Notes: generated from the letters alone by a model not told the origin. A stretch of DNA of 64,000 nucleotides from a virus (IMGVR_UViG_3300045988_159685); one strand, 5' to 3'. Numbered from the stretch's first letter, positions 35,147-51,798 are shown. Program-made: numbers and translations.

Positions 35147-35164
35147 AAAAACACCTCGCTTAGA

Positions 35165-36643
35165 TTAGAAATTATTATTGTGGAGTCTGTTGCGGATATT
35201 AGCAAGTGAGTCATCAATAAGCAATTCGCTATTTCTGAATATTGCCTTTAACTCTTGTTTACTATTACAGGAAACTTCTTTCCAAGTATATTCGTCCTTA
35301 TAACAGAGCTCGCCGTTATCGTCTTTATAAACAAGACAACAACCCTTTTGTGATTTCTTAAATCCACCCTCTTTTGGATTTTTGAATATAGGATATGGCT
35401 TATGATCGATTTCACAGTATGTTGCCTTAATACAAGAACTAAAGGTATCTCTTGTAAATGGTTTAAGTATTCCATCTTCTTCTACGCACTGAAATGAAAA
35501 TGAGCCAACGCCAAGTGCAACATTGCTAGCCGCAAAGCCGTTATCCTTTAAAATTTCATATATCCTTTCACAACGCTGGATAGTAATTGAGTCACCATAA
35601 ATAGCCTTTACATGAGGGTCAAGAACTTTGTATCCCTTACTATTAATTGTGCCACCAAATTCATCCCAAAGTTTAAACACTGTTTTAGTTACAACTTCTA
35701 TGCAATCACCTGAATCGCCACGCATAAGCATGCAACCATTGTGCGCCATAATCTCTGGTTTTATTTGTGGCAAAACGTTATCAATGACATTCCAATAATC
35801 ATATGAATCAAGGACAGCAGAAAAACTTGTATCAGGATAAATCTCGGTCAATAATCTTTTAAGCAACGTAACTTCGTCACCATCAACCGCATAATTTGAA
35901 CACATAACTGCATGTTCGGTAGAGGGCGAACCAAATGCTACAGGCTCTTTGGTACAATCGCAATTATAAAGCTTTTCAAGATATGGTATGACAGGGACTG
36001 TTGCTGTATTTACAAAACTCAGACACCAACCAGCCGCCGCTTTAATAGCAGAATCCGTACATTCTTCACCTCTAAAGTCAAAAGAACCTAGAGCTTTGTT
36101 TCGTGACACACTATCATCACAGGTTTCATCGTAGAACTTATTTACGATATCACGATAAGTTGCACCCACCGTTGCGGCAAGCATTGGATGCCAAGCCTCG
36201 GCTGATATAAGCGATTCAAGAGCCTGCGGTAGCCATGCAAAATCGTCATGCGTATTAGTTATGCAAAACATCGGAACGTGCATTGGAACCTTTGTTCCTT
36301 CTGGTAATGCCCATATCTCAATTGGGAGATAGCCAAGGGCATGCAGGTCTTTTATTTTCTGCAAGCCATATACGCCCTTACCAAGTGAAGCATCCATAAT
36401 ACGCTCATATTCCGAAATGACTTCGTCTATAGGGCGTTCAAAAAATCTTTCATTAAAGTAATCTATCAAATAGGTTTTTACAAAGCCCTGAAGTCCGAAC
36501 ATCACGACTTTGTTCCACATCCTTACACGACTCATTCGTGGCGTAAAATATGAAACGGATTTTGTTATCTTAGTCGGCAACATCTCAGCATGAACCGCTT
36601 TATAAAAATCAATAAGTAGCATTGGGTTTATATTATATAACAT
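35165..36643 (-). CDS. Nicotinamide/nicotinate phosphoribosyltransferase-family protein (NAMPT/NadV-like; possible Namat)
   Basis: N-terminal NPMLLIDFYKAVHAEM. 492 aa, typical of the NAMPT/NAPRT fold family. Adjacent to a Prs-like gene. Confidence 0.8.
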   Translation of the reverse strand: MLYNINPMLLIDFYKAVHAEMLPTKITKSVSYFTPRMSRVRMWNKVVMFGLQGFVKTYLIDYFNERFFERPIDEVISEYERIMDASLGKGVYGLQKIKDLHALGYLPIEIWALPEGTKVPMHVPMFCITNTHDDFAWLPQALESLISAEAWHPMLAATVGATYRDIVNKFYDETCDDSVSRNKALGSFDFRGEECTDSAIKAAAGWCLSFVNTATVPVIPYLEKLYNCDCTKEPVAFGSPSTEHAVMCSNYAVDGDEVTLLKRLLTEIYPDTSFSAVLDSYDYWNVIDNVLPQIKPEIMAHNGCMLMRGDSGDCIEVVTKTVFKLWDEFGGTINSKGYKVLDPHVKAIYGDSITIQRCERIYEILKDNGFAASNVALGVGSFSFQCVEEDGILKPFTRDTFSSCIKATYCEIDHKPYPIFKNPKEGGFKKSQKGCCLVYKDDNGELCYKDEYTWKEVSCNSKQELKAIFRNSELLIDDSLANIRNRLHNNNF

Positions 36644-36660
36644 AACTTGTCACCTCCAAA

Positions 36661-37512
36661 TTAAAACATATCGAAAATCTCAATTTTGTCTGCGTTTACT
36701 TCAAGTCCATCGGCACCAATCTTCTTGCGGTAAATACTATTGGTAGAGAAAACCTTTTTGATAAGCCCGCTCTTAATCATGTCGCCGTCGTGTACCGAAT
36801 TTTCAAGATGTGAAACGTATAAATAAATGTCGCCAACACCATACTCTTTTAGAGCTTTTGCACTATAATAGAAAGTTCCGCCCCTAGAACAAATATCATC
36901 AACAATTAATACGTTTCTACCTTTTAATGTGTCTGTATTACCCATGATGCTTAATCCATTAATGGTTCCAGTTTTCCAATCCCTATTTTTCATACCGAAT
37001 ACATAAGGCACTTCAAGAATACTAGATATGAATGAATAACGTTTCATTGCGCCTTCGTCTGGGAAAAATAAAATAAGATCTTTCCTAGAAATCTTTTCGT
37101 CAATAATATTATCCCTCAAAATGCCAGCCGGTGAAGAATCTCTGATATTGTTTATTAGAGCCGCTCCAACGTTTGAATGAATGTCAAGTGTAAATACTTT
37201 TCTAAACTCCATATTATTGATTAGATTTGCAAATGTTTTGAGCGTAAACATTTCAAACGCTTTTTGTGTACGATCCATGCGAGCATTAGGAACATATGGC
37301 ATATTCAGATTAATGTTACAAAAGCCCTTGCTCTTTAACCAATCGACACAGCAAGCTAACTGAAATATCTCCGAATCATTGTCGTAAAGCCAAGTTATGT
37401 CTATAGGTGCTGAAACCCCATATCCAATGAGTTCCGCAATGCTATAGGTCAGTTTACACGTTCCATCAGGAAATTTAATAATATTAATTGGTTTAGAATC
37501 AATAGAAATCAT
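36661..37512 (-). CDS. Ribose-phosphate pyrophosphokinase-like protein (Prs-like; possible Adps)
   Basis: FTLDIHSNVGA (DxHS-type) and the PRPP-loop NVLIVDDICSRGGTF. Confidence 0.75.
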   Translation of the reverse strand: MISIDSKPINIIKFPDGTCKLTYSIAELIGYGVSAPIDITWLYDNDSEIFQLACCVDWLKSKGFCNINLNMPYVPNARMDRTQKAFEMFTLKTFANLINNMEFRKVFTLDIHSNVGAALINNIRDSSPAGILRDNIIDEKISRKDLILFFPDEGAMKRYSFISSILEVPYVFGMKNRDWKTGTINGLSIMGNTDTLKGRNVLIVDDICSRGGTFYYSAKALKEYGVGDIYLYVSHLENSVHDGDMIKSGLIKKVFSTNSIYRKKIGADGLEVNADKIEIFDMF

Positions 37513-37524
37513 AGAATCCTCCTA

Positions 37525-38049
37525 TTATATAATGTTAATTTGACAACTTTTTGCTACCGTTAAAGCCGCCTGCTTCGCTTCGGGTGTTGTGCCTGCTGTA
37601 GCATTTTCGATTATATTAATCTTCATTTCGGGAAACCGTGTTTTTAGAATTAAGGCATTTGTAATCACGCAGATATCAGTGCAAAGTCCAACCAAATCGA
37701 CTTCGTCGTAGTTATCCTCAACTAACTTAGTGGCAATATTAAATGTACCAAATGTCGGCTTATTAATAACATCACATGGTATATTGCTTTCAATAGAAGC
37801 GACAGCTATATCATCATGTATTTTCCAACCATTGGTGCCTCTTATACAATGTTCGATAGGTAAATTTTTGCCCTCCTGTGTATCAAGATAATCTTTGCTA
37901 TGGGTGTCTCGTGTAAAAAATATCGCCGCATAGTCGGAACTTTGTATAAGCTTTGCAACATTTGGAACAATAGCTTGGGCTTCCCTAGTTCCCAAACTGC
38001 CATTAATAAAATCATTCTGCATATCAATAACTATTAATGCTTTTTTCAT
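37525..38049 (-). CDS. pncA: Nicotinamidase / isochorismatase-family hydrolase
   Basis: ALIVIDMQNDF, TRDTH, LVGLCTDICV (catalytic Cys). Confidence 0.78.
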   Translation of the reverse strand: MKKALIVIDMQNDFINGSLGTREAQAIVPNVAKLIQSSDYAAIFFTRDTHSKDYLDTQEGKNLPIEHCIRGTNGWKIHDDIAVASIESNIPCDVINKPTFGTFNIATKLVEDNYDEVDLVGLCTDICVITNALILKTRFPEMKINIIENATAGTTPEAKQAALTVAKSCQINII

Positions 38050-38186
38050 ATGTAAACCTCTTTTCTCATTCACTTCATATAATATAAAATAAGTCCATCT
38101 AGGTGCTTACAAGGGTTTTCTTCTTGCCTTTAGCGGTACATTCGATCTTATATAGTTTTATCATTTTTTTATTTCTCCTAAAAAAA

Positions 38187-38747
38187 TCAAGCATTGTTAT
38201 CTGCTAAATAGCCTTCCACATCAAAATGAACACCGTCGCCATTACAAATCAAATACTCACTAAACCTAGGATCTATGTCATAATTATTCAATGTAGTTCT
38301 GTCACACTTTTTAAAATATGTTCCTTCCACATCAAACTCTGAATTGGCTCTATCTGTATAACCATATGTATCAAATCCAATACATAATACACTTATATCA
38401 TTGGTATACCAATTACCTCGATATAAAAGTAAATCGTTTACAACACATAAGCAATGCTCGTTAGTAACTCCATAAGGAGCTCCCGATTTTCCAATAATAA
38501 CGTCACCAATTTTAAATGGAAATTTATCGCCATCATCGCAGTCACAGGACTCAAATATATCGACCCATCTATCAGCCAAATAACCATAACAAGTGCCAAA
38601 TACATCATAACAAAACTGTTCTTTCAATCTTTTATATTTCAAAACATCGTCAAAATCTATTATATATTTACGATGCTCAAAATGATCAATATGCTGGTCG
38701 TAGAACTCGCAAAGCAAATCTTTATGTCTTCTAAGTTTCATCCACAT
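38187..38747 (-). CDS. Member of the small RRxKDLxCE paralogue family (longest, N-terminally truncated motif)
   Basis: MWMKLRRHKDLLCEFYDQ.. Confidence 0.55.
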   Translation of the reverse strand: MWMKLRRHKDLLCEFYDQHIDHFEHRKYIIDFDDVLKYKRLKEQFCYDVFGTCYGYLADRWVDIFESCDCDDGDKFPFKIGDVIIGKSGAPYGVTNEHCLCVVNDLLLYRGNWYTNDISVLCIGFDTYGYTDRANSEFDVEGTYFKKCDRTTLNNYDIDPRFSEYLICNGDGVHFDVEGYLADNNA

Positions 38748-39066
38748 TGTCAATACCTCTTAACTTACTCGGTTCTTCAAACAAATCTTTATGCCATCTT
38801 TTATCTGTAATCAAGCGTTTTGAACATTGGTTTTCTGCGGAAAGCTTCCAATAACCAGAAAACGTACTATCATGTATTTTCACAATTTTACCACATAAAA
38901 TATCCATGTCTCCACCTAAAATGCCATAGTCATTCAGATTACGTATATAATCATCTGTATTTCCGTATTCATAGTCATCGTCATATATGTCTGAGTCAAA
39001 ACTATATTCACAACATAAATCCTTAAATCTCCTAATGCGAACTTTGTCACCACTATTTAATATCAT
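38731..39066 (-). CDS. GDKVRIRRxKDLxCE family paralogue
   Basis: MILNSGDKVRIRRFKDLCCEYSF.. Confidence 0.6.
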   Translation of the reverse strand: MILNSGDKVRIRRFKDLCCEYSFDSDIYDDDYEYGNTDDYIRNLNDYGILGGDMDILCGKIVKIHDSTFSGYWKLSAENQCSKRLITDKRWHKDLFEEPSKLRGIDNVDET

Positions 39067-39074
39067 GATATCAC

Positions 39075-40661
39075 CTACTCATTCTCTGTAAGATATTCAG
39101 ATTTATTAATATTTGAACTCCAAATAACTATTTCTTGATTTTCAGCAGTGTTGCCTGTTAATGAATTTGTAGAGGTTAGCCATTCCCCATTAAATAGGCT
39201 TTTCACGCCAGCTCCAATCTTAATCAAAGACAGGTTTGATCCATACCTGTTGCAAGCATTGCGGAAGTTCATATAATCAGGAAAATTAAGATAATGCTCG
39301 CCGCTTATTACAAGACCTGACTCTTTTTTAACTGGCGTATCTGAAATATCTATACCAACTTCAGAAAGTATCGAATTGAAACTTGCATTTACCGATTCAT
39401 CTGTATAAATATTGCATGCAGGATACATTCTTGACTGAACATATTCTGTATGATCCTTATTTATCATAAATAACTGCCTAAATATTTTATCGTTCTTATA
39501 GTAATCATTGTCAGAACAATTTTTATCAAGCCCATATGTAATAACGGTTACATCATCATTTGCATATGATAAACATCCAGCGTGCCAACCACCACGATTT
39601 TTAAAACTGTGACACGATGACCAACTGTTGCCATGTGACATTGTAACAAAATCACATATATTTAGTGATACTACAAATTTAACCTGTAGAGGCCTTAAAG
39701 CCATGGCATCAAAACATTTTGCCGAGGCTTTGTTATACTCCGTCCTATCGGCTAATTTGAATTTTTTCATAATTGCATTTATATTTCTACTAGCCTTTGC
39801 ATTGACATTCATATCATCGTCATTTAAGCCGATTCTATTTAAGTATTCTTTTATATTTCTATATGAGGATTCAACAAAACGAATACAATTGTCAACCGAT
39901 TTGTAACTATACGAACTTGAAACTATAGCTGCTATGTAATCATATACTGACAAGGTTTGACGTGAAAATACAGGTGATTCCGCAGACATTGTTTGGAATA
40001 ATTCGCGAGCCGCAAACGCAACTACGTTATTATCTACATTACGATTGATTGGCAAGTCAATGGCAATACATTTTTCTTTATCATTCCACTGCGGATGTTC
40101 TCTAAACAATGCAATTAAATCCTTTTTGGCTTCATACCAAGTTTTAAATTCGTTATAAATGTATTTATCTTTTGCCTGAGGATAATAGGTCTTTATTAAT
40201 TTGTAGAAACAATCATAATTATACTTAAGATTGGAGTCCATCCAATCGGCGTTTTCTTCAATTGGTTCTTCAACAAATTTATAAGCTTTAAATGAGAGAC
40301 TGCCATCAGAATAAATATACGGACGCCTTTTAAGTACACCGTCCTGATAATATGAAAAAGTCTTTCTGCCAGATCCATATACAACAACTTTTTTATTTGT
40401 TCTACTAAGAATAACTGCGTCACCTGGAAGAAGTAACCTTGTATGCTGACCAGTAATGAAAACATATTTGTCCCCTAATATCTCATGCCCAAATACTTCT
40501 GCATCATACCATCGTCGAGCTACTATTTGTTTAGTTGCATCAATGATAAGTGGTTTTTTAAAGTTTCCAATAAGTTTTGATTCACCAACTGTTACATATT
40601 CATCATTTTCATTTTTTTCAATATCATAGCCATAAACACGTCCACAAAGTCTTATATACAT
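39075..40661 (-). CDS. Large Cys/His-motif protein (paralogue of 43249-45135)
   Basis: Blocks shared with the paralogue: LFREHPQWNDKEKCI / LRKHPNWDEKNLCI, SLNICDFVTMSHGNSWSSCHSF..GGWHAGCLSY / SVNPCDFLKMSYGEGWDSCHHVGHHGCYHAGTQSY, and FPDYMNF / YPDYNYE. Confidence 0.6.
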   Translation of the reverse strand: MYIRLCGRVYGYDIEKNENDEYVTVGESKLIGNFKKPLIIDATKQIVARRWYDAEVFGHEILGDKYVFITGQHTRLLLPGDAVILSRTNKKVVVYGSGRKTFSYYQDGVLKRRPYIYSDGSLSFKAYKFVEEPIEENADWMDSNLKYNYDCFYKLIKTYYPQAKDKYIYNEFKTWYEAKKDLIALFREHPQWNDKEKCIAIDLPINRNVDNNVVAFAARELFQTMSAESPVFSRQTLSVYDYIAAIVSSSYSYKSVDNCIRFVESSYRNIKEYLNRIGLNDDDMNVNAKASRNINAIMKKFKLADRTEYNKASAKCFDAMALRPLQVKFVVSLNICDFVTMSHGNSWSSCHSFKNRGGWHAGCLSYANDDVTVITYGLDKNCSDNDYYKNDKIFRQLFMINKDHTEYVQSRMYPACNIYTDESVNASFNSILSEVGIDISDTPVKKESGLVISGEHYLNFPDYMNFRNACNRYGSNLSLIKIGAGVKSLFNGEWLTSTNSLTGNTAENQEIVIWSSNINKSEYLTENE

Positions 40662-40716
40662 TTTTTATACTTCCTTTCGGTATTATTTACCGCATAGCAT
40701 ATACGGCATTGGCGGA

Positions 40717-41082
40717 TTAAACCGCCCTGCTCGCCTTGATTTTATCATTGGCAATTTTAAATATTTTGAGGTAATATTCCAACCTTGCTTTTTTAATTTC
40801 ATTATCGCCACACCATCGCATCTGCTTTTCAAGCTCAATTATTAATTGAGGTATCGTGTAATTATCTTTTATAGTATTACAGTCGTGGCAGCATACAACT
40901 AAATTACTGACCTCGTCTTTACCACCTTTTGATACAGGTATGATATGGTCAAGCGTTTTATCTGATTTGATATACTTCCCACAATAAAAGCAGAAATCAG
41001 AATCTACCTCTTTGCGTACTTGTTCTGTGTAGTTTCGCATATAATAAAAAAAAAGAGGGCGACTAACGCCGCCCTCGTACAT
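40717..41082 (-). CDS. HNH endonuclease-domain protein
   Basis: CFYCGKYIKSDKTLDHIIPVSKGGKDEVSNLVVCCHDCNTIKDN. Confidence 0.8.
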   Translation of the reverse strand: MYEGGVSRPLFFYYMRNYTEQVRKEVDSDFCFYCGKYIKSDKTLDHIIPVSKGGKDEVSNLVVCCHDCNTIKDNYTIPQLIIELEKQMRWCGDNEIKKARLEYYLKIFKIANDKIKASRAV

Positions 41083-41086
41083 GTTG

Positions 41087-41803
41087 TTATCTAATGCCTC
41101 TGCTGTCGATTTCATGATTGATGAATTTCTGCAAATCATCATATGTCATAGCGGCAATAGTATCATCGAGACCATACTCATCGTCACATGTTGACACTGG
41201 GTAAATCTTGTTTGCCTCGCAGATCATCTGATCAACATTGCAATAATCGTCGCCATACTTTGTAGGATTGTCAACCGCAGTTCTATAAACCTCTACAATA
41301 TCATAGTCGCTATTTGACACATGCTCCAGGGTGTCATTGTCAAACTTGGAAAGCCATGTAAAGCTGTTATTAGCTGTATGATATCTAACAATATCGCCGA
41401 ACTCTGCGCCCTTAAATACTGTAGACCTCTTGCCGTTTCTATGAACAAGCATATCACCTGTTTTAAGGGAGTCGATTGTTATATCGTCGCCGTTAGCCTC
41501 GGCTGTAGCTCTGTCGTAAACAACTGTGCCGTACTCCAGCATCTTAAGTGGATTAAAAACAAGGTCGCCAATCTTATTGCTTGCAACGCCTATAGCACGA
41601 TAAACCTTAACAATTGTCAGTCCATCTGCTCTCTTGTTTGTCATATCTGAATTGTAGTTTACGCCGAGTCTTGAGAATGAATTAAACTCAGTATGGAAGC
41701 GAAGCACATCTTCTCTAGCTGTGCCCTTCATAACTGTTGCCATCTTACCGTTTGCACATATAACGAGGTCGCCTGTCTTAAGATTAGAAATTGTAAATGT
41801 CAT
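41087..41803 (-). CDS. Protein with an internal tandem duplication (two ~95-aa repeats)
   Basis: FTISNLKTGDLVICANGKMATVMKGTAREDVLRFHTEFNSF.. versus ITIDSLKTGDMLVHRNGKRSTVFKGAEFGDIVRYHTANNSF.. ATG at 41803 follows AAAGGAG. Confidence 0.6.
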   Translation of the reverse strand: MTFTISNLKTGDLVICANGKMATVMKGTAREDVLRFHTEFNSFSRLGVNYNSDMTNKRADGLTIVKVYRAIGVASNKIGDLVFNPLKMLEYGTVVYDRATAEANGDDITIDSLKTGDMLVHRNGKRSTVFKGAEFGDIVRYHTANNSFTWLSKFDNDTLEHVSNSDYDIVEVYRTAVDNPTKYGDDYCNVDQMICEANKIYPVSTCDDEYGLDDTIAAMTYDDLQKFINHEIDSRGIR

Positions 41804-41927
41804 AAAAATATCTCCTTTTAAATGTTTTAATATTAGTGTCATTTGAATTGATATGTAGCGCTTTTTATTCTGGTGGACTACGACCATGAATAATCATGTT
41901 TATCACCCCCTCCGTTCGTCGTTAGAC

Positions 41928-43247
41928 TTATTTACATATCGCAACAGAAATTTCACTTTCTGGTTTGAAAGTTTCACAATCTGTCTCGTCGTTTGCTTCT
42001 CCCGGATACATTGCGTCGAGGAGTATCATCATAAAATCATCACTAAGATTTGTGCAATATGTCATATCATAAATTGACAAATTCATTATATAGTCATTTA
42101 TTTTTTCTATATTTTCATAAAACGCCCAAGGCATTTCCATTGAATCCTCTTCGCGATAACTTATTAGATCGCCTTTATCATCAACCAGTTTATACTGTTC
42201 TTGTAAAGGATAATATAGAGCTGTATCTTCATCAAGGCCATATATTGTGCCGTCTTTATCAATCACATATTCATCCAGTGATTCAGTTGGCTTACTATCT
42301 GGCTCATTAAAGTTCTTTAAATAAACCTTGCTGTTTGGCACGCAAAGTTTCTTGTGAAAAATGCTACTATAAAGATCTAAGCCTAGCTGCGGTTCTTCGT
42401 CATAGAAATCGCTGACTGAATTTTTTGCTTTGCCGCCGCCATAATAATCCTCAATTTTAAACTGTCCATCTTTGTCATCGCTTTTTTGTTTTTTAATGTC
42501 ATTACTGGCACTATAAAAATCATAGCCGTAATATCGCCCATAAAGGCCTGAATAATCATACTTGATTTTAACCTTTTCAATGTATTCATATCTTGGCGTT
42601 TCAGTATTGATGAGCACCATTGCACGCTTGATATTATTCTCAACATCTTCAAGGTTAATATATTCGTGCTGGGTATGAGGTGAATAGTACCCACTCGACA
42701 GATTAACGGCTGCAACCTTTAAATGCGGCGCAACGTGGCTTATATCACTACAACTACCCCATGCACTTTTGAAACCAACATCTGGATTTGTAATAAATTT
42801 TTCAAATTCATCATTATCACAATCGTAAAACACGGCGTCGTTTCCACTTTTTCTGTCAAACTCGATAATATAATTGAGTTTTTCTGGTACATATGAGGAT
42901 TTGCAAAATTTTCTGGCTCCAACGCAACCAATTTCTTCATCCTCGGTGAAGATTACTGAGCAATGAACGTCTTTGACAATTTGTAATATCATATAGATAC
43001 CACAACGGTCATCACCTCCGATACCCTGTGGTGACATTATATACTTGCCGTCTTCGGAAACGCACACAATCGTACAGTTATCATGATGTACGGTATCCAT
43101 ATGTGCCATTAGTAATACTGGATGCGTACCCTCTGCATATATGTAGCCGTCTTCATTTACAGGCGAATAACCTAAATTTTGAAGTTCTACAAAAAGCCTT
43201 TCTTTAAGCTTATCCTGTGGTAGTTTGCAAATCTCAATAATATTCAT
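41928..43247 (-). CDS. M20/M28-type metallopeptidase-like protein with ~200-aa C-terminal extension
   Basis: LLMAHMDTVHH, GGDDRCGIYMIL, FTEDEEIGCVGA (metal ligand pattern H/D..D..EE). Confidence 0.55.
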   Translation of the reverse strand: MNIIEICKLPQDKLKERLFVELQNLGYSPVNEDGYIYAEGTHPVLLMAHMDTVHHDNCTIVCVSEDGKYIMSPQGIGGDDRCGIYMILQIVKDVHCSVIFTEDEEIGCVGARKFCKSSYVPEKLNYIIEFDRKSGNDAVFYDCDNDEFEKFITNPDVGFKSAWGSCSDISHVAPHLKVAAVNLSSGYYSPHTQHEYINLEDVENNIKRAMVLINTETPRYEYIEKVKIKYDYSGLYGRYYGYDFYSASNDIKKQKSDDKDGQFKIEDYYGGGKAKNSVSDFYDEEPQLGLDLYSSIFHKKLCVPNSKVYLKNFNEPDSKPTESLDEYVIDKDGTIYGLDEDTALYYPLQEQYKLVDDKGDLISYREEDSMEMPWAFYENIEKINDYIMNLSIYDMTYCTNLSDDFMMILLDAMYPGEANDETDCETFKPESEISVAICK

Positions 43248-43248
43248 A

Positions 43249-45135
43249 TTAGTCCACCTCTTTTATTCCATCAATATCAACTATACATACATACTTGTCG
43301 TCAACATTAAGTGCACATAACGTATGTTCAGCACCATCGTACATCCACTTAAAAGTTTTTATTATTGTTCCAAAAATATTAAGATCATAGTAGCATTCAC
43401 AAGCTTTTCTATCAAAAAGCTGTAATGTTGGAAACATCTCTTTTGCACTAAGAAAACGTATAAAAATTAAACCCTTTTTTGAAACAAAAACTTTTTTGCC
43501 AGCAATAAGTTTCTTTTCACGGCAATCTTTACACAATCCGTCAACTAACGAATTGTTACCATAAAACGCTTGATGACAACAATTACATTTATGAACACGA
43601 TGCGGGGCATATAAAACATCATGTTCTTCGTCGTAACCCGCATAATTATCTACTTCTCTTACATAAAAATACTCATTGGTAATATCGTCAATAAAAAATG
43701 CCTCCTGTGTGCTCCAATCTTCCCCCTCATCACAATCGTCGCATATCATATTTCCTGAATTGCAAAGTTCATCGCCGCATTTCAAACACCAAGAACTATG
43801 CCCAATTGTAATATCATCGCCATCCCATATACTATCAAAAGCGTACAGATTAGTATTGTATTGCTCATAATTATAGTCTGGATAATGCAATGAGTTTTCC
43901 GCCGCGCAGATATGACTATGATCCACTTTTCTATACTCGTTTTTTATACCAAGACAATTGGATATTGCTTGCGAAACAAAATATGTATAAGTTGCGTCGC
44001 GCTGAGGTAACTTATAATTTGGATAGTTACGAGATTGCAATAGAAGCCCGTTCTGAAAACAATAAATCTGTCTTGTCAGCTTGTTGTTTTCCCATGGCTC
44101 GCCTACATATTGGTTTGACAAAGTATAAAAAATCATGCTCGAAGAATCCATTATATAAGACTGCGTTCCTGCATGATAACAACCGTGGTGCCCTACATGG
44201 TGACATGAATCCCATCCCTCACCATATGACATTTTTAGGAAGTCGCATGGATTTACTGAGAGTATTGCCACCTGCGTGTTTTTTAATGGGTTTACGGCAT
44301 CGGCAATCACCGCAAAATCGTGATTGTAGTTTGGGTATTTATCAAGTCCCATATCTACAAAAATCTTGTTAAGTTCACGAGAATACTTGGCCCCAACGGT
44401 CATATGTACGCCAACCGCCTCATACCTTTCTTTTATCTCCTTAGTAACAAACTGCTGTGGTTGGGTACACTGCACACCATCCCACATTATGTCTAATTGT
44501 TTGTCTGTCAGATACATACCGTTTTCACGGCAATTATGGTAAAATTCTTTACAAGCTTTAAGAAAGTCGTTACCGTCCTTTACACGAGTTTCTTCTACCT
44601 CACCTTTAATGCAAAGATTTTTTTCATCCCAATTAGGATGTTTCCTCAATATAGAAAGCAGTTCTGCTTTGTTTGTAAAGAATTCATTAACGATATCGAC
44701 AATAACGTCTTTATTATACTCGTAGCTTGCATCGTCAAGAATACTGCACATATTATTTACAATATCCATGCGTTCACAAGAACCCTGTGGTTCTTTTTCA
44801 TGAGGCTTCATTGGAGCAAAAAACGTAAGCTCATCAGCTTCAGGTGAAATATAATGATATAAAGCCGATTCACCATTATTTTTTTCATATGTAAATGTTG
44901 CCGTAGAATCAATAACGTGTTTGGCTATTTTACATACCTTAACTTTTCTGCCGTTCTTACGCAGAACGATAGTGTCACCAATCTCAAAGAGGTTTTCACT
45001 AAGTTCACTGCGGTTATAGATTTCTCCCGACATCATATAAACTTCGTCGCCTGCTATCTTCCTTATTCTGCCGATATACTCTCCACAACGAACAAGCTCA
45101 AATCTTCTTAATGTTTTAAATTTTTCTTCCGTCAT
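43249..45135 (-). CDS. Large Cys/His-motif protein (paralogue of 39075-40661) with extra CxxC-rich C-terminal region
   Basis: See 39075-40661. The C-terminal part adds CLKCGDELCNSGNMICDDCDEG and CNCCHQ..CKDC. Confidence 0.6.
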   Translation of the reverse strand: MTEEKFKTLRRFELVRCGEYIGRIRKIAGDEVYMMSGEIYNRSELSENLFEIGDTIVLRKNGRKVKVCKIAKHVIDSTATFTYEKNNGESALYHYISPEADELTFFAPMKPHEKEPQGSCERMDIVNNMCSILDDASYEYNKDVIVDIVNEFFTNKAELLSILRKHPNWDEKNLCIKGEVEETRVKDGNDFLKACKEFYHNCRENGMYLTDKQLDIMWDGVQCTQPQQFVTKEIKERYEAVGVHMTVGAKYSRELNKIFVDMGLDKYPNYNHDFAVIADAVNPLKNTQVAILSVNPCDFLKMSYGEGWDSCHHVGHHGCYHAGTQSYIMDSSSMIFYTLSNQYVGEPWENNKLTRQIYCFQNGLLLQSRNYPNYKLPQRDATYTYFVSQAISNCLGIKNEYRKVDHSHICAAENSLHYPDYNYEQYNTNLYAFDSIWDGDDITIGHSSWCLKCGDELCNSGNMICDDCDEGEDWSTQEAFFIDDITNEYFYVREVDNYAGYDEEHDVLYAPHRVHKCNCCHQAFYGNNSLVDGLCKDCREKKLIAGKKVFVSKKGLIFIRFLSAKEMFPTLQLFDRKACECYYDLNIFGTIIKTFKWMYDGAEHTLCALNVDDKYVCIVDIDGIKEVD

Positions 45136-45153
45136 TTTAAGACACTCCTTTTT

Positions 45154-45384
45154 TTATTTACCCATTAGAGGCATTACAAATTTAATAAATGTTATAGGAT
45201 TAACATTTTGTCTTTCACATTCAGATATGATATCTTCCATGTGCGTTGTTTTTGGTCTACATTTCGCTATTCGTTTCATAATGTAACGAAAAAGCAAATA
45301 GGTATGCGGGCTATTAATTTCCTTTATTTTTTCAAGCAAATCCAGGTATCGCTTAAAAAAGAAAACACTTTTTTCCAACCTCAT
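45154..45384 (-). CDS. Hypothetical protein
   Basis: Tiling ORF. Confidence 0.45.
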   Translation of the reverse strand: MRLEKSVFFFKRYLDLLEKIKEINSPHTYLLFRYIMKRIAKCRPKTTHMEDIISECERQNVNPITFIKFVMPLMGK

Positions 45385-45402
45385 ATATTCACCTCCTAAA
45401 AA

Positions 45403-45663
45403 TTAAAGCGCTCTGCCGTCAAGGGATTCAAGCATGTATAAATCAAAGACATAGTCATAATTAATGCCGAGTAAGTATCCATCATAACCATCAAAATCGT
45501 CTTCAAAAGCATCTATCGTGGTTTCTTCGCCACAAAAATTATACATGTAACCAGCAAATGTATGTCCTACCTCAATTGCCCCATTTTTATCGTGTGGTTC
45601 TACAAACTCACACAATAAATCTTTGCACCGCCTAATCCGAACCCTATCTCCAATTTTAGTCAT
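45403..45663 (-). CDS. GDKVRIRRxKDLxCE family paralogue
   Basis: MTKIGDRVRIRRCKDLLCEF...YMLESLDGRAL. Confidence 0.6.
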   Translation of the reverse strand: MTKIGDRVRIRRCKDLLCEFVEPHDKNGAIEVGHTFAGYMYNFCGEETTIDAFEDDFDGYDGYLLGINYDYVFDLYMLESLDGRAL

Positions 45664-45678
45664 ATCATCATCTCCTAT

Positions 45679-45975
45679 TTAATTTTCAGCAATAAGGCTA
45701 CCGTCAAGGCGTTCTAACATATATGCGTTAAAATTGAAACTGCACGCTTCATCTATACGAAAAATGTCATAACTTCCATCTATCAGAAACAGATTAATTA
45801 TTTTGTGTTCCTCTCCACAGTATTTGCACATGGCGTCAACAAAAGAACTATCCTTCTCAATTAAGATACCCCAATTACCAAACATTTCAACGCCGTCATA
45901 CATTTCGATGTCTATATATTCACAGGCTAAATCTTTTAGTCGTCTAACCCTGATTTTGTCTCCAACTTGCAACAT
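45679..45975 (-). CDS. GDKVRIRRxKDLxCE family paralogue
   Basis: MLQVGDKIRVRRLKDLACEY...YMLERLDGSLIAEN. Confidence 0.6.
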   Translation of the reverse strand: MLQVGDKIRVRRLKDLACEYIDIEMYDGVEMFGNWGILIEKDSSFVDAMCKYCGEEHKIINLFLIDGSYDIFRIDEACSFNFNAYMLERLDGSLIAEN

Positions 45976-45990
45976 ATCACCGCCTCCTAT

Positions 45991-46290
45991 TTAATTTTCA
46001 GCAATAAGACTGCCATCGAGATGTTCTAACATATACGCGTTCAAATTGAAAGGACATTTATACGCAGAAAAAACGGCACAACCTCTATATGGAGAATGGC
46101 GCGAATTTATTACGAGCTCCTGCCCACAAAAGACACACATGCTATCAATAAAAAAGCTTCCTTTGTCAATCAGAGCTATACATTCGCTACCAGTTCCGGA
46201 TCCGATTAGTTTATACCTTTCAATATTCATGTGTTCACAGGCTAAATCTTTTAGTCTTCTAACTCGAACTTTGTCACCCACCTGTATCAA
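45991..46290 (-). CDS. GDKVRIRRxKDLxCE family paralogue
   Basis: (TTG)IQVGDKVRVRRLKDLACEH...YMLEHLDGSLIAEN. TTG lies 8 nt after GGAGGTGG. Confidence 0.6.
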   Translation of the reverse strand: MIQVGDKVRVRRLKDLACEHMNIERYKLIGSGTGSECIALIDKGSFFIDSMCVFCGQELVINSRHSPYRGCAVFSAYKCPFNLNAYMLEHLDGSLIAEN

Positions 46291-46322
46291 AACAGTACCA
46301 CCTCCTATCAAATAAATAATTG

Positions 46323-46805
46323 TTAAAGATTAAAGTTAAACTTAATCATTTTATCATTAAACCAATTACATAATTTTATATATTTAGTTATGTCATAAAG
46401 CATAATCTGATTATATTCACAATTATAATGGTCAATAAAATCAGGAATATATCTTAGCCTAAAATCATCTGGGGTAATTTGATATAAGCCTCTGCCATAA
46501 AAATCATTGCCCTTTATCTTATACCCACAAAGCATACTTATAAAAGAGTAAGTATCTTCATTATTAATCCATACGACCTTTTCTGTTGAAAGCCTATCTT
46601 TTATAGTGTGAAGTGCAAGTGTTTTATGCCAAGTCAAAACGGCTCCTACATTAACTGTATTATCTGTTATTGTAGGAGTGAATATAAGGAATTCTCTACA
46701 AGCGGGGTTTGTTTTATATTCTTCTTGTATAGCTCTTTCACGATTGGTATATGTAGTTCCGTTTGTAATTGTATAGGCATGGGTTTCTTTTAGCATATAA
46801 TACAA
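46323..46805 (-). CDS. Hypothetical protein
   Basis: Tiling ORF inside the paralogue array. Confidence 0.5.
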   Translation of the reverse strand: MYYMLKETHAYTITNGTTYTNRERAIQEEYKTNPACREFLIFTPTITDNTVNVGAVLTWHKTLALHTIKDRLSTEKVVWINNEDTYSFISMLCGYKIKGNDFYGRGLYQITPDDFRLRYIPDFIDHYNCEYNQIMLYDITKYIKLCNWFNDKMIKFNFNL

Positions 46806-46826
46806 CCTCCCTTATAGTTTTATCAT

Positions 46827-47150
46827 CTACACCCATAATTGATTATCCAACTCTTCCAAATCTTCTTCAGTATATTCTCTAACGTTTTTTCCACATCTTT
46901 CAAACATATATTCTGCAAAGGCAAAAGGCAATTCTCGACCACAATTAGTTTCAAGCCTATAAATATTATGATTGCAGAAGTAAAAATCCTTTATAAAGAA
47001 TTCTTTTCCGCAATATGGAATCATGCTTTTGATGAAATGAATATATCCGAAAATCAATGCGTTACCACAATACTGTGGAGACGGAGTTTCAAACTCGCAC
47101 CGCATATCCTTAAGAGATCTTATTCGCACTTTGTCGCCTATCTGATACAT
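46827..47150 (-). CDS. GDKVRIRRxKDLxCE family paralogue
   Basis: MYQIGDKVRIRSLKDMRCEF...EYMFERCG.. Confidence 0.6.
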   Translation of the reverse strand: MYQIGDKVRIRSLKDMRCEFETPSPQYCGNALIFGYIHFIKSMIPYCGKEFFIKDFYFCNHNIYRLETNCGRELPFAFAEYMFERCGKNVREYTEEDLEELDNQLWV

Positions 47151-47170
47151 TAAAAATCACCTCTTTTCAA
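47126..47170. repeat. 45-bp perfect direct repeat, copy 1 (RBS + first codons of paralogue)
   Basis: gcactttgtcgcctatctgatacattaaaaatcacctcttttcaa, identical to 47396-47440. Confidence 0.9.
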
Positions 47171-47420
47171 ACATATATTCCTCAAAAGTAGATAAAAGAG
47201 GGGCTCTATTTATGGTTTCAAGTAGATAACATTTACGCCCATCCACATATCTTAGTTGACGAATATGATATTGCTGCCCACAAAAAATAACCATGTACTT
47301 TAAAAAACCTGTCCCTTTTCTTATTAATAAATTCCCAACATAGTACGGCGGCATCGTTTCATATTCACACAGCATATCTTTTAAACGCCTCATTTGCACT
47401 TTGTCGCCTATCTGATACAT
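47157..47420 (-). CDS. GDKVRIRRxKDLxCE family paralogue
   Basis: MYQIGDKVQMRRLKDMLCEY...EEYMFEKR. Confidence 0.6.
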   Translation of the reverse strand: MYQIGDKVQMRRLKDMLCEYETMPPYYVGNLLIRKGTGFLKYMVIFCGQQYHIRQLRYVDGRKCYLLETINRAPLLSTFEEYMFEKR

Positions 47421-47440
47421 TAAAAATCACCTCTTTTCAA
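47396..47440. repeat. 45-bp perfect direct repeat, copy 2
   Basis: Identical to 47126-47170. Confidence 0.9.
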
Positions 47441-48010
47441 TAGGTCATTTACGATGTCCTTAAAGAGTTTGCGTAATTTCGGGTTATTTTCTATAACCTC
47501 ATGTTTTGAGGTTACATTTGCCCTCTTCATACGATTACTCCATACGATGCCATATCTTGCAGACATTTCACCATAAATACGCCGCAATGTGGCATTATAC
47601 CCCAGAGAGTTATCGTCACGCCTTTGCGCAAGAGGAGCCGCCACCATTGAACAAGTGACATCGATTAGTTCTACCGGTGTAAGATCTAATTTTCTTACAT
47701 TCATATTATCCATAATGTGGTATGTAAATGTTGTTCTTTCAACAATTCTGAATTTTAAAAAGTCAAGAAAATCTTTGCCATCACAATGTCTTGTTTCGTA
47801 TTTGCGACTAAAGCCCCATACACGGCAAAACTCATTAATAGTTTCATTGATAAGTTGTTCTGTTTTTCTACGTGCTGTCGTTTCTTTCCCAAATGTTTTT
47901 ATTAAAAAATGGTTATATACATTAGTAAGCAAAACGCTTTTCCATTCATCCGCGCCGAGCACTCTCCCAAGAATTTGTTCGTCGCGTGTAGCCCTTTCAA
48001 TCTTTTTCAT
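47420..48010 (-). CDS. Hypothetical protein
   Basis: Tiling ORF, ATGA-type overlap with the downstream paralogue. Confidence 0.5.
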   Translation of the reverse strand: MKKIERATRDEQILGRVLGADEWKSVLLTNVYNHFLIKTFGKETTARRKTEQLINETINEFCRVWGFSRKYETRHCDGKDFLDFLKFRIVERTTFTYHIMDNMNVRKLDLTPVELIDVTCSMVAAPLAQRRDDNSLGYNATLRRIYGEMSARYGIVWSNRMKRANVTSKHEVIENNPKLRKLFKDIVNDLLKRGDF

Positions 48011-48085
48011 GTAAATCTATCCCTTCTTTTTTTATTATGTAGTTATATGAAACTACATATCAGTAATACTATTGGTTGCATTATT

Positions 48086-48160
48086 TGGTGACTCGTGCAG
48101 GAATTGCACCTACGATTCCATCCTGAGAAGATAGCGTCTTAACTACTTGACCAACGAGCC
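48086..48160 (-). tRNA. tRNA-Glu-like, anticodon CUC (copy A; atypical T-loop UGCAAUU)
   Basis: Minus strand: GGCTCGT TG GTC AAGTAGTTAA GAC G CTATC TTCTCAG GATGG AATC GTAGG TGCAATT CCTGC ACGAGTC A CCA. Same architecture as Firmicutes tRNA-Glu (3-bp D stem). Confidence 0.7.
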
Positions 48161-48243
48161 ATAAGCCCATAAGGGCTTTTTAATACTATGGGATTATTGG
48201 AGGTGAAGAACCATAGTATGTATCAGGAATTACCCTCGCGCTG

Positions 48244-48319
48244 TGGCTGGAGTGGCTGGACTCGAACCAGCGGAATGACGGAGTCAAAGTCCGTTGCCTT
48301 ACCTCTTGGCTACACTCCA
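48244..48319 (-). tRNA. tRNA-Gln (UUG)
   Basis: TGGAGTG TA GCC AAGAGGTAA GGC A ACGGA CTTTGAC TCCGT .. GCTGG TTCGAGT CCAGC CACTCCA G CCA. Close to Bacillus tRNA-Gln. Confidence 0.85.
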
Positions 48320-48345
48320 ATATAGCCCGTAAAAGCGGGCATTTT

Positions 48346-48618
48346 TTACAACTTTTTACCATCAAGGGTTTCGAACATATATTCCGTCCAAGCCCAACAC
48401 GTGATTTCATTCAACGTATATTCGCCTGTATCTCCATATCCTCTATCCTGAATCTCCGTTATACTGTGAATTTCTCCACAATATATATACATTGATGGGT
48501 TAAAACTTAAATATGAATTTTTGGGGCGTAATGGTTCATCTTCTTGATTGTTGTAACTATATTCGCAAAGCAGGTCTTTTTTACGCCTTATTCTGACTTC
48601 ATTGCCGATTTTTAGCAT
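48346..48618 (-). CDS. GDKVRIRRxKDLxCE family paralogue
   Basis: MLKIGNEVRIRRKKDLLCEY...EYMFETLDGKKL. ATG at 48618 follows GGAGGTG. Confidence 0.6.
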   Translation of the reverse strand: MLKIGNEVRIRRKKDLLCEYSYNNQEDEPLRPKNSYLSFNPSMYIYCGEIHSITEIQDRGYGDTGEYTLNEITCWAWTEYMFETLDGKKL

Positions 48619-49150
48619 TATGCACACCTCCAATTTTGTATGGAATCTGAGTTACTCCAAGTTTTTTTGCGGCAATGTATCTGGCATAGCCGTCTTTCAA
48701 AATTTTGTTGCCCTTAGCATCAAGCTTTATAGTTATGGGGTTATCGAAAATTCCATAATATTTATAGAAACAGATAGCCCTGTCCACCTTTTCTTTCTTT
48801 GGCGGATGATTCATAAAGTCTCTGGGTATGTACACTTTATCTACATCTATGAGCTTTTTGAAGTTGCTCATAAAAGCGGGGCGACTAATGTTTACAACTA
48901 TCGCATTTATAGTTGCTACGCCATCACGCTTGGAGATTTCGTAATCTCTTCGACCTGTAATCAAAGAATATGTATCACGGGAATTTCGCCGCACAATTAC
49001 AACGAGGTTGTCTTTTGTGCCGAGTTTTTCAGTGTCGATACTCTTCTTGTGTACACTATCTGTCAGCATGATGTTCCTAACTGGTATAGGAATCGCCTGC
49101 GCCGCCATTCTTGACCTGAAATTTTTTATATTGTTAAAACAGTACGCCAT
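48599..49150 (-). CDS. ParB/Sulfiredoxin-like nuclease-domain protein
   Basis: C-terminal KILKDGYARYIAAKKLGVTQIPYKI (DGxxR-type ParB N-domain motif). An N-terminal segment YSLITGRRDYEISKRDGVATINAIVV looks like a second copy. Confidence 0.55.
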   Translation of the reverse strand: MAYCFNNIKNFRSRMAAQAIPIPVRNIMLTDSVHKKSIDTEKLGTKDNLVVIVRRNSRDTYSLITGRRDYEISKRDGVATINAIVVNISRPAFMSNFKKLIDVDKVYIPRDFMNHPPKKEKVDRAICFYKYYGIFDNPITIKLDAKGNKILKDGYARYIAAKKLGVTQIPYKIGGVHNAKNRQ

Positions 49151-49179
49151 AATTTCTACCTCCTATTTTTTATAATGGC

Positions 49180-49255
49180 TGGTGTGCCATTCGGGATTTG
49201 AACCCGAGACCTTTCGATTAAAAGTCGAATGCTCTACCAATTGAGCTAATGGCAC
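49180..49255 (-). tRNA. tRNA-Lys (UUU), copy 1
   Basis: GTGCCAT TA GCTC AATTGGTA GAGC A TTCGA CTTTTAA TCGAA AGGTC TCGGG TTCAAAT CCCGA ATGGCAC A CCA. Confidence 0.88.
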
Positions 49256-49615
49256 ATAGACCGCCGTGGCGGTCAGCATTGTAACCCATGGTTACACAGA
49301 TTACAATTTAATTACAAAGTGGTGACATAATTCAATCGACCGTGTTACTTAAATGTAACTCGCAAGCTTTTTAGCTTGCATTTGAATAAAAAAAATAACG
49401 ACGGATTAACCAAAGTTGACCCGTCGTTAAATATATAAAATGGACACTTTTCAGCCTTGTGGATAACCTACGGTCAAGTTATGACGCACCTTAACCAAAC
49501 TCAAGGGTTTTGTAAAATCTTAATTGTTGTGCTTTAAGATTTAAGCTTTAGACGATTATAAGCTTTGAACTTTCGTAATTAAATTTTCAGCTTTATGCCT
49601 TAAGCTTTATCTTAT

Positions 49616-49657
49616 TACTCGTACAGGAATTGAACCTGTAATGCAACCAGTCGAGCA
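49616..49657 (-). other. tRNA-derived acceptor/T-arm minihelix-like fragment (no D or anticodon arm, no CCA)
   Basis: Minus strand: TGCTCG-ACTGGTTGCATT-ACAGG TTCAATT CCTGT-A-CGAGTA. The 3' half resembles the tRNA-Glu-like copies. Confidence 0.4.
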
Positions 49658-49819
49658 ACAAAACATTCCCACAAAAAAGGAATATCATATATCTTCGTAT
49701 AGACTACGATAGCTATTACTTATATTTGAGGCCAGATTTTTATTATTTTACTTTGTGAATATAGCCTAAAACACAAAGGTCATAAAATTAAAGGTTTTCA
49801 AAAAGCACCCATTTTTTGC

Positions 49820-50461
49820 TTAGTACGAAATTTCGATTTCGGTTATAGCGTTCGATACGCTGATAGCCGAGTCAAAATCAATCTTAAACTTGTCTATACG
49901 ATCGACAAGGTCAGAAATGATTTCGGCAGTGTCAAAACCCTCGATAATTTCAAAAGTGTTCGCCTTTATGAAATTGGTTTTCGCCTCCTCTATTTCCTTT
50001 GTAACAGCTTTACCGTCTTTTGAACCAAACATTCCAAGTACATACTCATCGGCACGCCCCTGTAATGTTTCGCCGTTCTCATAATTACATCTGTCCTGTG
50101 CAGCTTTAAGCTGTTTAGACATATGCTTCAAAAGATCTTCCTCAAATTCAATGCCGTGATTCTTATACTCTATAGCCTCGGCAATAGTCAGTTTCATACC
50201 CTGTATTGTGACTTCGGTCTCGGCATTTGAAAGCGTAACGGCACGCTTAATTGCCTTACGCCTTTTTATAAGGTCGGCTATTTTGTCATAGCTCGCCTTG
50301 AAGCCATTCTTAGCTTCTTCAATAGAGACGCCATTTATCTTTGTGTTGCTATGTTTGTTCTCAACCACAAATTTTGCATCTTTGATAAGGGCGGGTATCC
50401 TCTTATCGAGAATCTTAAGCTCACAAAGTGCCTGATGAATCGTCATTTTTTCGTTAGTCAT
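49820..50461 (-). CDS. Hypothetical protein (213 aa, helical)
   Basis: Clean ORF between tRNA-like elements. Confidence 0.55.
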   Translation of the reverse strand: MTNEKMTIHQALCELKILDKRIPALIKDAKFVVENKHSNTKINGVSIEEAKNGFKASYDKIADLIKRRKAIKRAVTLSNAETEVTIQGMKLTIAEAIEYKNHGIEFEEDLLKHMSKQLKAAQDRCNYENGETLQGRADEYVLGMFGSKDGKAVTKEIEEAKTNFIKANTFEIIEGFDTAEIISDLVDRIDKFKIDFDSAISVSNAITEIEISY

Positions 50462-50515
50462 TTCAAAAACTCCTTTGAATTTTAAAATTTACAGACCTGA
50501 TTATGCCTGTATTGA

Positions 50516-50575
50516 TGGTGGCTCACACAGGATTTACACCTGTACTCTCACTGGGGATAAGAGTCTATTTGAGCC
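50516..50575 (-). pseudogene. 60-nt truncated tRNA-like element ending in CCA (D arm absent)
   Basis: GGCTCAA ATAG ACTCTTA TCCCCAG TGAGAGT ACAGG TGTAAAT CCTGT GTGAGCC A CCA. The acceptor pairs at 6 of 7 positions. The loop has C at position 33. Confidence 0.45.
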
Positions 50576-50628
50576 ATAGCGATGCAAAGCATCGCACTCA
50601 GAAAAAGAAGGGAATGCCCAAAACGGGC

Positions 50629-50704
50629 TGGTGACTCACGCAGGATTTGAACCATGCAATTCCGCCCTGAGAAGGCGGCGTCTTAACCGTTTGACCAGTG
50701 AGCC
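50629..50704 (-). tRNA. tRNA-Glu-like, anticodon CUC (copy B; one unpaired base in the T stem)
   Basis: GGCTCAC TG GTC AAACGGTTAA GAC G CCGCC TTCTCAG GGCGG AATT GCA(T)GG TTCAAAT CCTGC GTGAGTC A CCA. Confidence 0.6.
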
Positions 50705-50728
50705 ATAAGGCGGAGAACTCCGCCTATA

Positions 50729-51673: not shown

Positions 51674-51729
51674 AATTTCACCTCCTCTTGTAAAACAAAT
51701 TGAACATCTTGCTTAGTTAGTAACCTAAA

Positions 51730-51760
51730 TTCTTAACGGAACAAGTTGTTCCTTTAAGAA
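51730..51760. promoter_or_regulatory. Operator-like palindrome O2 upstream of the HTH gene
   Basis: TTCTTAACGGAACA-AGT-TGTTCCTTTAAGAA, one mismatch from perfect symmetry and the same consensus as O1. Confidence 0.65.
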
Positions 51761-51775
51761 ATATCCATCTTTAAT

Positions 51776-51798
51776 GGGATAAGTTGTTCCTTTAAAAG
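51776..51798. promoter_or_regulatory. Degenerate operator-like site O3 (good right half only)
   Basis: GGGATA-AGT-TGTTCCTTTAAAAG. Confidence 0.4.

Follow-up and report, generated by a model that had tools for sequence, protein, structure and literature searches.

A diversified array of small phage proteins remotely related to the Mind bomb SH3 repeat domain

In the eukaryotic RING ligase MIB1, the REP repeats are substrate-recognition domains (PMC11701565); in Pfam they belong to PF18346 (SH3_15, "Mind bomb SH3 repeat domain"). Those eukaryotic members of the family that have been characterised recognise short peptide motifs of their substrates. Among phage proteins, TifA (Orf65 of Enterococcus phage 47) is acidic, has an SH3-like N-terminal domain, binds type IV restriction enzymes and adapts by point mutations (PMC10680825), and Nip of phage phi3T, a protein with two SH3-like domains, binds and inhibits SpbK, a TIR NADase (PMC11984713). 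Here, we compare with these systems a family of small proteins encoded in a viral stretch of 64,000 nucleotides (nt), IMGVR_UViG_3300045988_159685. This whole stretch is referred to as the window, positions are counted along its full length, and the eight open reading frames (ORFs) under study, between 38187 and 48618, are labeled m1 to m8. Our conclusion is that the family represents a branch of the SH3_15 (Mind bomb REP) superfamily, one that is divergent, standalone and phage-borne, and that the relationship is remote. With regard to function, our favoured reading, which is possible but still tentative, is that the array represents a lineage-specific tandem expansion of a cytoplasmic SH3-like barrel of about 90 amino acids (aa), i.e., a set of diversified protein binders serving host takeover or counter-defence.

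The window proteins resemble the MIB1 REP domains (PF18346; 4TSE, 4XI6) in being small SH3-like barrels, with MIB1 REP as the best PDB match both by fold and by profile, and in the order of the aligned elements, namely an opening GD-V strand, a central M...G(K) strand and a closing aromatic strand. In contrast to the MIB1 domains, which are repeats within a RING ligase, the window proteins are standalone, about 90 aa long and phage-encoded, with no link to ubiquitination, and they carry signatures of their own (KDLxCE[YF], CG and a C-terminal LDG tail). TifA, too, is small, acidic and phage-encoded, and its N-terminal domain is SH3-like; however, it has two domains and is not homologous to the window family, and we regard it as a plausible functional analogue only. 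When homology to TifA was considered, no ORF within positions 1-50000 of phage 47 (all but the last 7.3 kb of the genome) matched the family profiles at E < 0.1. The scanned part contains the probable TifA gene, identified at 37068-37475 of L026 by its position, by L32 and by its 21.5% of acidic residues. Nip (phi3T_120) is comparable in being the product of an accessory gene of an SPbeta-group phage located upstream of the replication genes, whereas it differs in its length of 279 aa and in its HU-like dimerisation domain. No phi3T ORF between 60 and 100 kb, phi3T_120 included, matches the profiles.

The domain is also present in cultured phages. It is carried by Enterococcus saphexaviruses, where the adjacent genes efb48 and efb49 of phage BC611 each have an N-terminal copy, and, according to tblastn with the family consensus, by Clostridium perfringens phages and Bacillus phage vB_BcoS-136. 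These SH3_15-like proteins (PHROG 7488; BC611 efb48/efb49; phiCP39-O; vB_BcoS-136) are like the window family in the domain itself, by profile (E 1.6e-13, 5e-11) and by fold, and in their early or accessory position, sometimes as adjacent pairs or arrays. Conversely, they are only 25-40% identical to it, and many are multi-repeat proteins or are fused to other domains. All of them are uncharacterised, and they give no functional transfer. The product of efb49 (2995-3579 of L025) has been labeled a cytidine deaminase; Pfam finds no deaminase domain in it. Its N-terminus is SH3_15-like and its C-terminus resembles a coiled coil.

The paralogues and their relationship to SH3_15

All eight ORFs reported in the initial annotation are present, and all are on the minus strand. 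The proposed eight-member family holds for seven of them, m2 to m8, which are full-length paralogues, whereas m1 is related through its N-terminal ~20 residues only. For the leave-one-out test, the window was translated in six frames, and its 624 ORFs were all searched with a profile made from six copies. These profiles recovered the omitted member at E 1.4e-9 to 9e-26 and found no non-family ORF at E <= 10. The recovered members are m2 (38731-39066, 111 aa; E 1.4e-9), m3 (45403-45663, 86 aa; E 6.7e-18), m4 (45679-45975, 98 aa; E 9e-26), m5 (45991-46290, 99 aa; E 8.5e-21), m6 (46827-47150, 107 aa; E 7.8e-21), m7 (47157-47420, 87 aa; E 1.2e-20) and m8 (48346-48618, 90 aa; E 3e-17). The core six (m3-m8) match each other in pairwise BLASTP at E 3e-7 to 5e-29; for example, m5 is 52% identical to m4 (E 5e-29), and m6 is 48% identical to m7 (E 1.5e-23). 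The most diverged full-length member, m2, lies 6 kb from the main array and still aligns end to end with the others; its homologues P0057, P0062 and P0075 carry the names Ruminococcus bicirculans or Ruminococcus sp.

Across the end-to-end alignment of the seven members, G5, R11, K14, D15, C18, E19, M49, C53, G54, I59 and E88 (m4 numbering) are invariant. The motifs from which the family had been proposed are indeed seen, i.e., GDKVRIRRxKDLxCE(Y/F) at the N-terminus, (Y/F/L)CG in the center and YM(L/F)E at the C-terminus. The proteins have a fixed scaffold, consisting of an N-terminal strand-helix (GDKVRIRRxKDLxCEY), a central M...CG strand and a C-terminal YM(L/F)E strand, and the segments between these elements differ from copy to copy. 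The scaffold residues are kept across copies that are 30-50% identical. All full members are single-domain proteins of 86-111 aa without a RING or any other domain. The family tail has the form LDG(x)2-6, and m6 has an acidic C-terminal extension. The N-termini are polar and, by eye, without a signal-like segment, and no membrane or secretion features were found.

Traces of duplication are visible in the DNA as well. The N-terminal motif appears as a six-copy repeat with 64-76% identity, and two longer repeats mark the m3/m4/m5 and m6/m7 duplications. A duplicated junction of 118 nt (47053-47170, minus strand; repeat family D3) is 77% identical to 47323-47440. It extends from the 3' end of the preceding gene across the Shine-Dalgarno site into the 5' end of m6 or m7, and ttgaaaagaggtgatttttaatgtatcagataggcgacaaagtgc occurs twice; therefore, the m6/m7 pair points to tandem duplication. 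A strong Shine-Dalgarno site precedes each of m3 to m8 (the six copies read as DNA) and m1; m8 combines it with an ATG start, and m5 has a TTG start at 46290 with AGGAGGTGG as its Shine-Dalgarno site.

The partial relative m1 (38187-38747, minus strand, 186 aa) overlaps m2 by 17 nt. Its match to the family is confined to the first ~20 residues (MKLRRHKDLLCEF) and was obtained in every leave-one-out run at E 2e-5 to 3e-3; with the broad superfamily profile, m1 goes undetected. The remainder of m1 is a different domain, and its homologues are restricted to this phage lineage. A diverged orthologue in L034 retains a fuller motif, KVRIRKYKDVLCEY. Structure prediction with nine close homologues gave no usable model of m1 (predicted local distance difference test score, pLDDT, 32.6), and a PDB sequence search with m1 gave no match. 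Judging by its sequence, we treat m1 as a probable chimeric or strongly diverged relative and not as a full member.

The family had initially been left unrecognised; we find that it can be resolved as a remote standalone branch of the SH3_15/Mind bomb REP SH3-like domains that occurs widely among phage metagenomes. When 5.8 billion proteins were searched by profile, 107 relatives were obtained, and a HMMER search of 1.84 billion cluster representatives gave 920 clusters at E <= 1e-3, i.e., hundreds of relatives, many of the clusters being proteins of 200-700 aa with 2-5 copies of the domain. The longer homologues provide the connection to Pfam. With E-values of 1.8e-15 to 1e-13, the family profile matches P0115 (residues 3-81), P0122 (225-301) and P0120 (293-372), and on these same residues PF18346, for which the Pfam gathering threshold is 24 bits, scores 32.1, 37.0 and 23.3 bits, respectively. 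Altogether, PF18346 matches 22 of the 87 long homologues, with a best E-value of 1.6e-70.

The structural comparison is in agreement with this assignment. The AlphaFold2 model of m4, made with a 50-sequence alignment, is a confident small beta-barrel with two short helices (pLDDT 83.3, predicted template modelling score 0.74); it is least confident at residues 21-40, the segment that is the most divergent between copies. In a Foldseek search of 350,542 PDB chains, the top matches of this model were the MZM-REP and REP domains of MIB1 (4xi6 and 4tse; Foldseek probability 0.97 and 0.87), and the best PDB sequence match of the broad family profile is again MIB1 REP (4tse; E 0.026, full-length alignment). 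The viral structure library gave mainly matches to phage proteins that are uncharacterised, and a small number of these carry the automatic name "Mind bomb SH3 repeat domain".

Other results speak against the assignment. None of the eight window proteins matches PF18346 even at E <= 1, and none attains the threshold of any Pfam family; the absolute Foldseek scores are weak (E 0.08-0.14, TM-score 0.46); and when the family alignment of 50 sequences was compared with the REP2 fragment of MIB1 by hhalign, nothing significant was obtained (probability 1.5%). Since the direct comparison of the family with REP2 fails, the relationship is to be regarded as remote. Matches to PHROG 7488 are weak (E 2e-4 for m4 and m8, ~0.09 for m5 and m6) and absent for the other members; no member has a significant match among NCBIfam families. 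The SH3b domains that bind bacterial cell walls (SH3_3, SH3_5 and related) have no Pfam match among the members, whose genes are located in the replication and accessory arm. A literature search on SH3_15 in phages yielded no relevant source other than the ECOD description. With the remote placement in SH3_15, eight "hypothetical proteins" become a defined domain family whose profile finds hundreds of relatives.

The placement also bears on what the copies may bind. SH3-like barrels often bind nucleic acids, and the copies could be small nucleic-acid binders (Tudor, KOW or Sso7d-like) that influence transcription or translation or shield the DNA of the phage. Weak fold and profile similarity to the ribosomal S4e, L19 and S17, PetP and RapA-Tudor barrels agrees with such an activity, as does the basic m7. 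However, the isoelectric points (pI) of the full members are acidic in five of the seven cases (4.3-5.2, with net charges of -4 to -10), with a sixth, neutral copy at 6.8, and it is the peptide-binding REP domains of MIB1, not nucleic-acid binders, that match best by fold and by profile. We therefore consider this alternative quite improbable, and the acidity of the five members suggests protein binding rather than nucleic-acid binding. The most acidic copy is m3 (pI 4.3). The only basic one, m7 (pI 9.2), has no LDG tail and is missing from many related phages.

Another array is found in the distant phage L024 (8300-12597), which has five SH3_15-like paralogues of 84-94 aa. All five end in a conserved C(K/R)SLL-stop tail, unlike the LDG tail of the window family. 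The paralogues of L024 do not form an unbroken series; a tyrosine recombinase gene and a 692-aa orphan lie between them.

Copy number and selection

Copy number was compared across related phages by counting full-length copies in those close relatives whose fetched DNA spans the whole block. It is variable: there are 3 copies in L004; 5 in L018 and L005-L008; 6 in L001 and L012; and 7 in L010, L011, L014 and the window. For example, m4 is missing from several related phages, and L030 is without m1 and also without the entire cluster of nicotinamide adenine dinucleotide (NAD) genes that adjoins it. This variation indicates that the copies are individually dispensable. In L013, two copies are split by frameshifts (8103-8409 and 9641-9971), which represent either pseudogenisation or assembly error. 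Between m5 and m6, the window has a 160-aa ORF (46323-46805, minus strand) that is replaced in the near-identical prophages L002, L003 and L005-L008 by a gene for an RRXRR-HNH protein of 397-413 aa, and this replacement makes the array a target, or a hot spot, of insertion by homing endonucleases.

The ratio of nonsynonymous to synonymous substitution rates (dN/dS) was calculated by the Nei-Gojobori method for each window gene against its distinct ungapped orthologues. For the family members dN/dS is 0.29-0.53 (for example, 0.48 in m3, 0.29 in m6 and 0.41 in m8, which has orthologues in 16 loci), m7 having too few changes to measure. For the neighbouring genes (13 run, of which 11 were usable) it is 0.04-0.28; accordingly, the family values are 2-10 times those of the neighbours. 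Pooled by predicted structural region, dN/dS is 0.26-0.27 in the N-terminal strand-helix and the C-terminal strand, 0.43 in the core and 0.69 in the two variable segments. It should be noted that all these values come from pooled window-versus-relative comparisons that are not phylogenetically independent, which lessens their weight as a sign of an arms race. The persistence of purifying selection indicates functional genes. We conclude that the genes are functional, and that the loops are under relaxed or partly diversifying selection.

These data also bear on the possibility that the copies are largely functionless duplicates, none with a role of its own, persisting via frequent recombination in a hot spot. 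Such an origin would agree with the dispensability of individual copies, the visible duplication junctions, the two frameshifted copies in L013, the invasion of the region by homing HNH genes and the constraint that is relaxed compared to that of the neighbours. Conversely, dN/dS is well below 1 in every measurable copy, the reading frames are intact, with conserved Shine-Dalgarno sites, in ~20 independent assemblies, the scaffold residues are conserved between copies, and the domain is kept in 920 diverse clusters. We rate functionless duplicates as very unlikely. The strong Shine-Dalgarno sites and the dN/dS below 1 give the genes an expressed look.

Neighbourhood and possible role of the copies

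The genes m1 and m2 adjoin a cluster of isochorismatase, phosphoribosyl pyrophosphate synthetase (PRPS)-like, NAMPT-like and NAD synthase genes. This four-gene NAD cluster (34346-38073, minus strand), located directly downstream of m1, comprises an NAD synthase-like gene (34346-35146), a NAMPT/NadV-like gene (35165-36643; NF006629, 420 bits), a divergent PRPS-like gene (36661-37512) that scores under all cut-offs for phosphoribosyl pyrophosphate synthetases, and an isochorismatase/nicotinamidase-like gene (37525-38073). Such gene content corresponds to phage NAD+ reconstitution pathways, which counter NAD-depleting defences (bioRxiv 10.1101/2024.02.11.579819; PMC12774641; PMC13586617). In particular, the pair of putative PRPS-like and NAMPT-like enzymes appears to resemble the NARP1 (Adps + Namat) counter-defence pathway of phages. 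Comparable surroundings are found for more distant homologues. On an unrelated 211-kb contig, the 26%-identical homologue P0103 lies between NAMPT/NAD synthase genes and a Macro-domain gene; the two-repeat homologue P0083 lies immediately upstream of ArdA, with ThiF and a reverse transcriptase in the vicinity; and next to the L024 array there are genes for ThiF, a reverse transcriptase, an AAA/nSTAND3 protein and a PRPS-like protein. A tendency of anti-defence genes to lie in clusters is known (PMC11724313).

The initial annotation had suggested that the family takes part in an arms race. This interpretation is plausible, and its support is circumstantial: there is a tandem, diversified accessory family with variable copy number, its dN/dS is raised, the loops evolve the fastest, and the neighbours are of the counter-defence type. 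In our favoured reading as protein binders, each copy would be a small protein-binding module, the variable loops of which would give it a distinct target specificity. A copy would bind a host protein during takeover and thereby block or redirect it, the target being most plausibly a defence protein or another protein relevant to infection. In this it would resemble small SH3-like phage proteins such as TifA and Nip, which bind defence enzymes directly and thereby inhibit them. If the copies are such target-specific binders, the scaffold would be a widespread and easily recognised guide to counter-defence and host-takeover proteins in gut phages, and the differences in copy number among near-identical prophages would amount to natural experiments linking copies to host defences.

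A number of observations count against the favoured reading. No structural region reaches dN/dS > 1, and the faster loops could result from relaxed constraint alone. Among the members there is no match to families known from defence or anti-defence; for m1-m8 and for the two large paralogues of the block (see below), PADLOC-DB gave no match at E <= 0.01. The argument from neighbours is one of guilt by association, and it is ambiguous, since genes of replication and nucleotide metabolism share the arm. Neither TifA nor Nip is homologous to the family, and the two are precedents by analogy only. Finally, the promoter scan of the window gave nothing above the shuffled expectation.

A more specific version of the favoured reading is that the array is a panel of single-domain binders on the SH3 scaffold, each copy neutralising a different host defence or hub protein, with copies gained, lost and shuffled to match the defences of the Ruminococcus hosts. 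We consider this version doubtful. If it is true, barrels of the Mind-bomb type would be an anti-defence scaffold that is general among gut phages and had so far gone unrecognised; the 920 clusters and the recurring position beside NAD-reconstitution, ArdA and Macro genes are consistent with this.

The ambiguity of the arm leads to another explanation, in which the copies are adaptor or regulatory subunits that tether or regulate the replication and nucleotide-metabolism enzymes of the phage itself. The array shares its co-directional arm with genes for a DNA polymerase, a primase, a DnaB-like helicase, a methyltransferase and NrdD and with the NAD genes; distant homologues are fused to the N-domain of a dATP/dGTP diphosphohydrolase (P0120), to a GNAT acetyltransferase (P0115) and to DUF3310; and in BC611 the domain is the N-terminus of two-domain proteins encoded just after DNA polymerase I. 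However, partnership with core machinery should result in stable copy number and strong constraint, yet near-identical phages have 3-7 copies, and the copies evolve faster than the surrounding enzymes. Moreover, such fusions occur in only a few of the 87 long homologues, and the deaminase label of efb49 is without Pfam backing. We regard adaptor subunits as unlikely.

The prophage state of the element raises a further possibility, i.e., that the copies protect the lysogen, by superinfection exclusion or as a component of a defence system. The element is an integrated prophage with integrases, accessory regions of prophages often hold defence genes, and in related loci toxin-antitoxin-like genes (PemK, MazE) and reverse transcriptases are found nearby. 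On the other hand, the absence of PADLOC matches and of membrane or secretion features is not what lysogen protection would lead one to expect, and the genes are co-oriented with the replication genes in a long arm of the lytic type, which is not the position of a moron expressed in the lysogen. Lysogen protection has, in our judgment, a low probability.

The element and other genes of the block

By its gene content, the element looks like a large SPbeta-like prophage of Ruminococcus. All genes from ~56 kb to the left end of the window are on the minus strand, and the family genes sit within this long co-directional replication and accessory arm. Divergent from it are a tyrosine integrase gene (56685-57473, plus strand) and a gene for a 907-aa protein (58045-60768, plus strand) that matches PF05183, an RNA-polymerase (RdRP) family that we take to include the YonO polymerase of SPbeta. 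The window and its relatives also encode a DNA polymerase of PHROG 405, a primase, a DnaB-like helicase, a methyltransferase and NrdD. Many contigs from gut metagenomes, with lengths between 50 kb and 1.8 Mb, contain the same block, and some of the encoded proteins are named Ruminococcus bicirculans or Ruminococcus sp. in the source records. A near-identity search of 50,697 phage records found no close relative among cultured phages; only tRNA matches were obtained, the tRNA-Gln region being the sole part of the block to match cultured phages. A scan of GTDB representative genomes with m2 as the query gave no match.

The suggestion that the whole 10-kb block was built from one small beta-barrel module has to be corrected. 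The two large paralogues and the two repeats of 41087-41803 are matched neither by the narrow nor by the broad profile at E <= 10 with filters off, and searches of all window ORFs with the narrow and the iterated broad profiles gave no support for including any further ORF in the family. The large paralogues (39075-40661 and 43249-45135, minus strand), of 528 and 628 aa, match each other at E 3e-28. They have no match in Pfam, PHROG, NCBIfam, PADLOC or the PDB, and 13 database relatives only; PDB sequence searches with the larger of the two (big2) and with the 238-aa repeat protein likewise found nothing. The gene order, i.e., big2, an M20-M28-like peptidase, the 238-aa two-repeat protein, HNH and big1, with SH3-like genes flanking, is kept in the diverged L034, and a distant homologue of the large paralogues, of 469 aa, lies among PcfJ, YodL and DUF2786 genes in L035. 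The HNH endonuclease gene (40717-41142, minus strand) encodes 107 aa in relatives, and its true start is probably near 41040. A strong terminator-like hairpin (41076-41055; 9-bp stem with 7 GC pairs, followed by T9) is located just upstream of it, after the 238-aa repeat gene.

Mobile and tRNA genes are found in the same arm. An IS605/TnpB-type transposase gene is present at 31612-32802 (minus strand). A diversity-generating retroelement was considered, since reverse transcriptases neighbour the distant arrays of L024 and L032; none was noticed among the window ORFs scanned, and no search dedicated to such an element was made. At the other end of the block, a ParB_N-like gene (48599-49150) has its end overlapped by m8, after which come tRNA-Gln and tRNA-Glu. 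These belong to seven tRNA genes within 48086-53160 (minus strand), which comprise three tRNA-Glu(CTC), two tRNA-Lys(TTT), one Gln(TTG) and one Leu(TAA); two of the seven stand between m8 and the remainder of the array. Near the left end of the window, an NrdD-like ORF of 322 aa matches only the C-terminal half of NrdD profiles (393-711 of 718), and a 401-aa integrase/recombinase-like gene is close to it (the two at 2838-3806 and 260-1465, respectively, minus strand); the NrdD gene may be split or interrupted.

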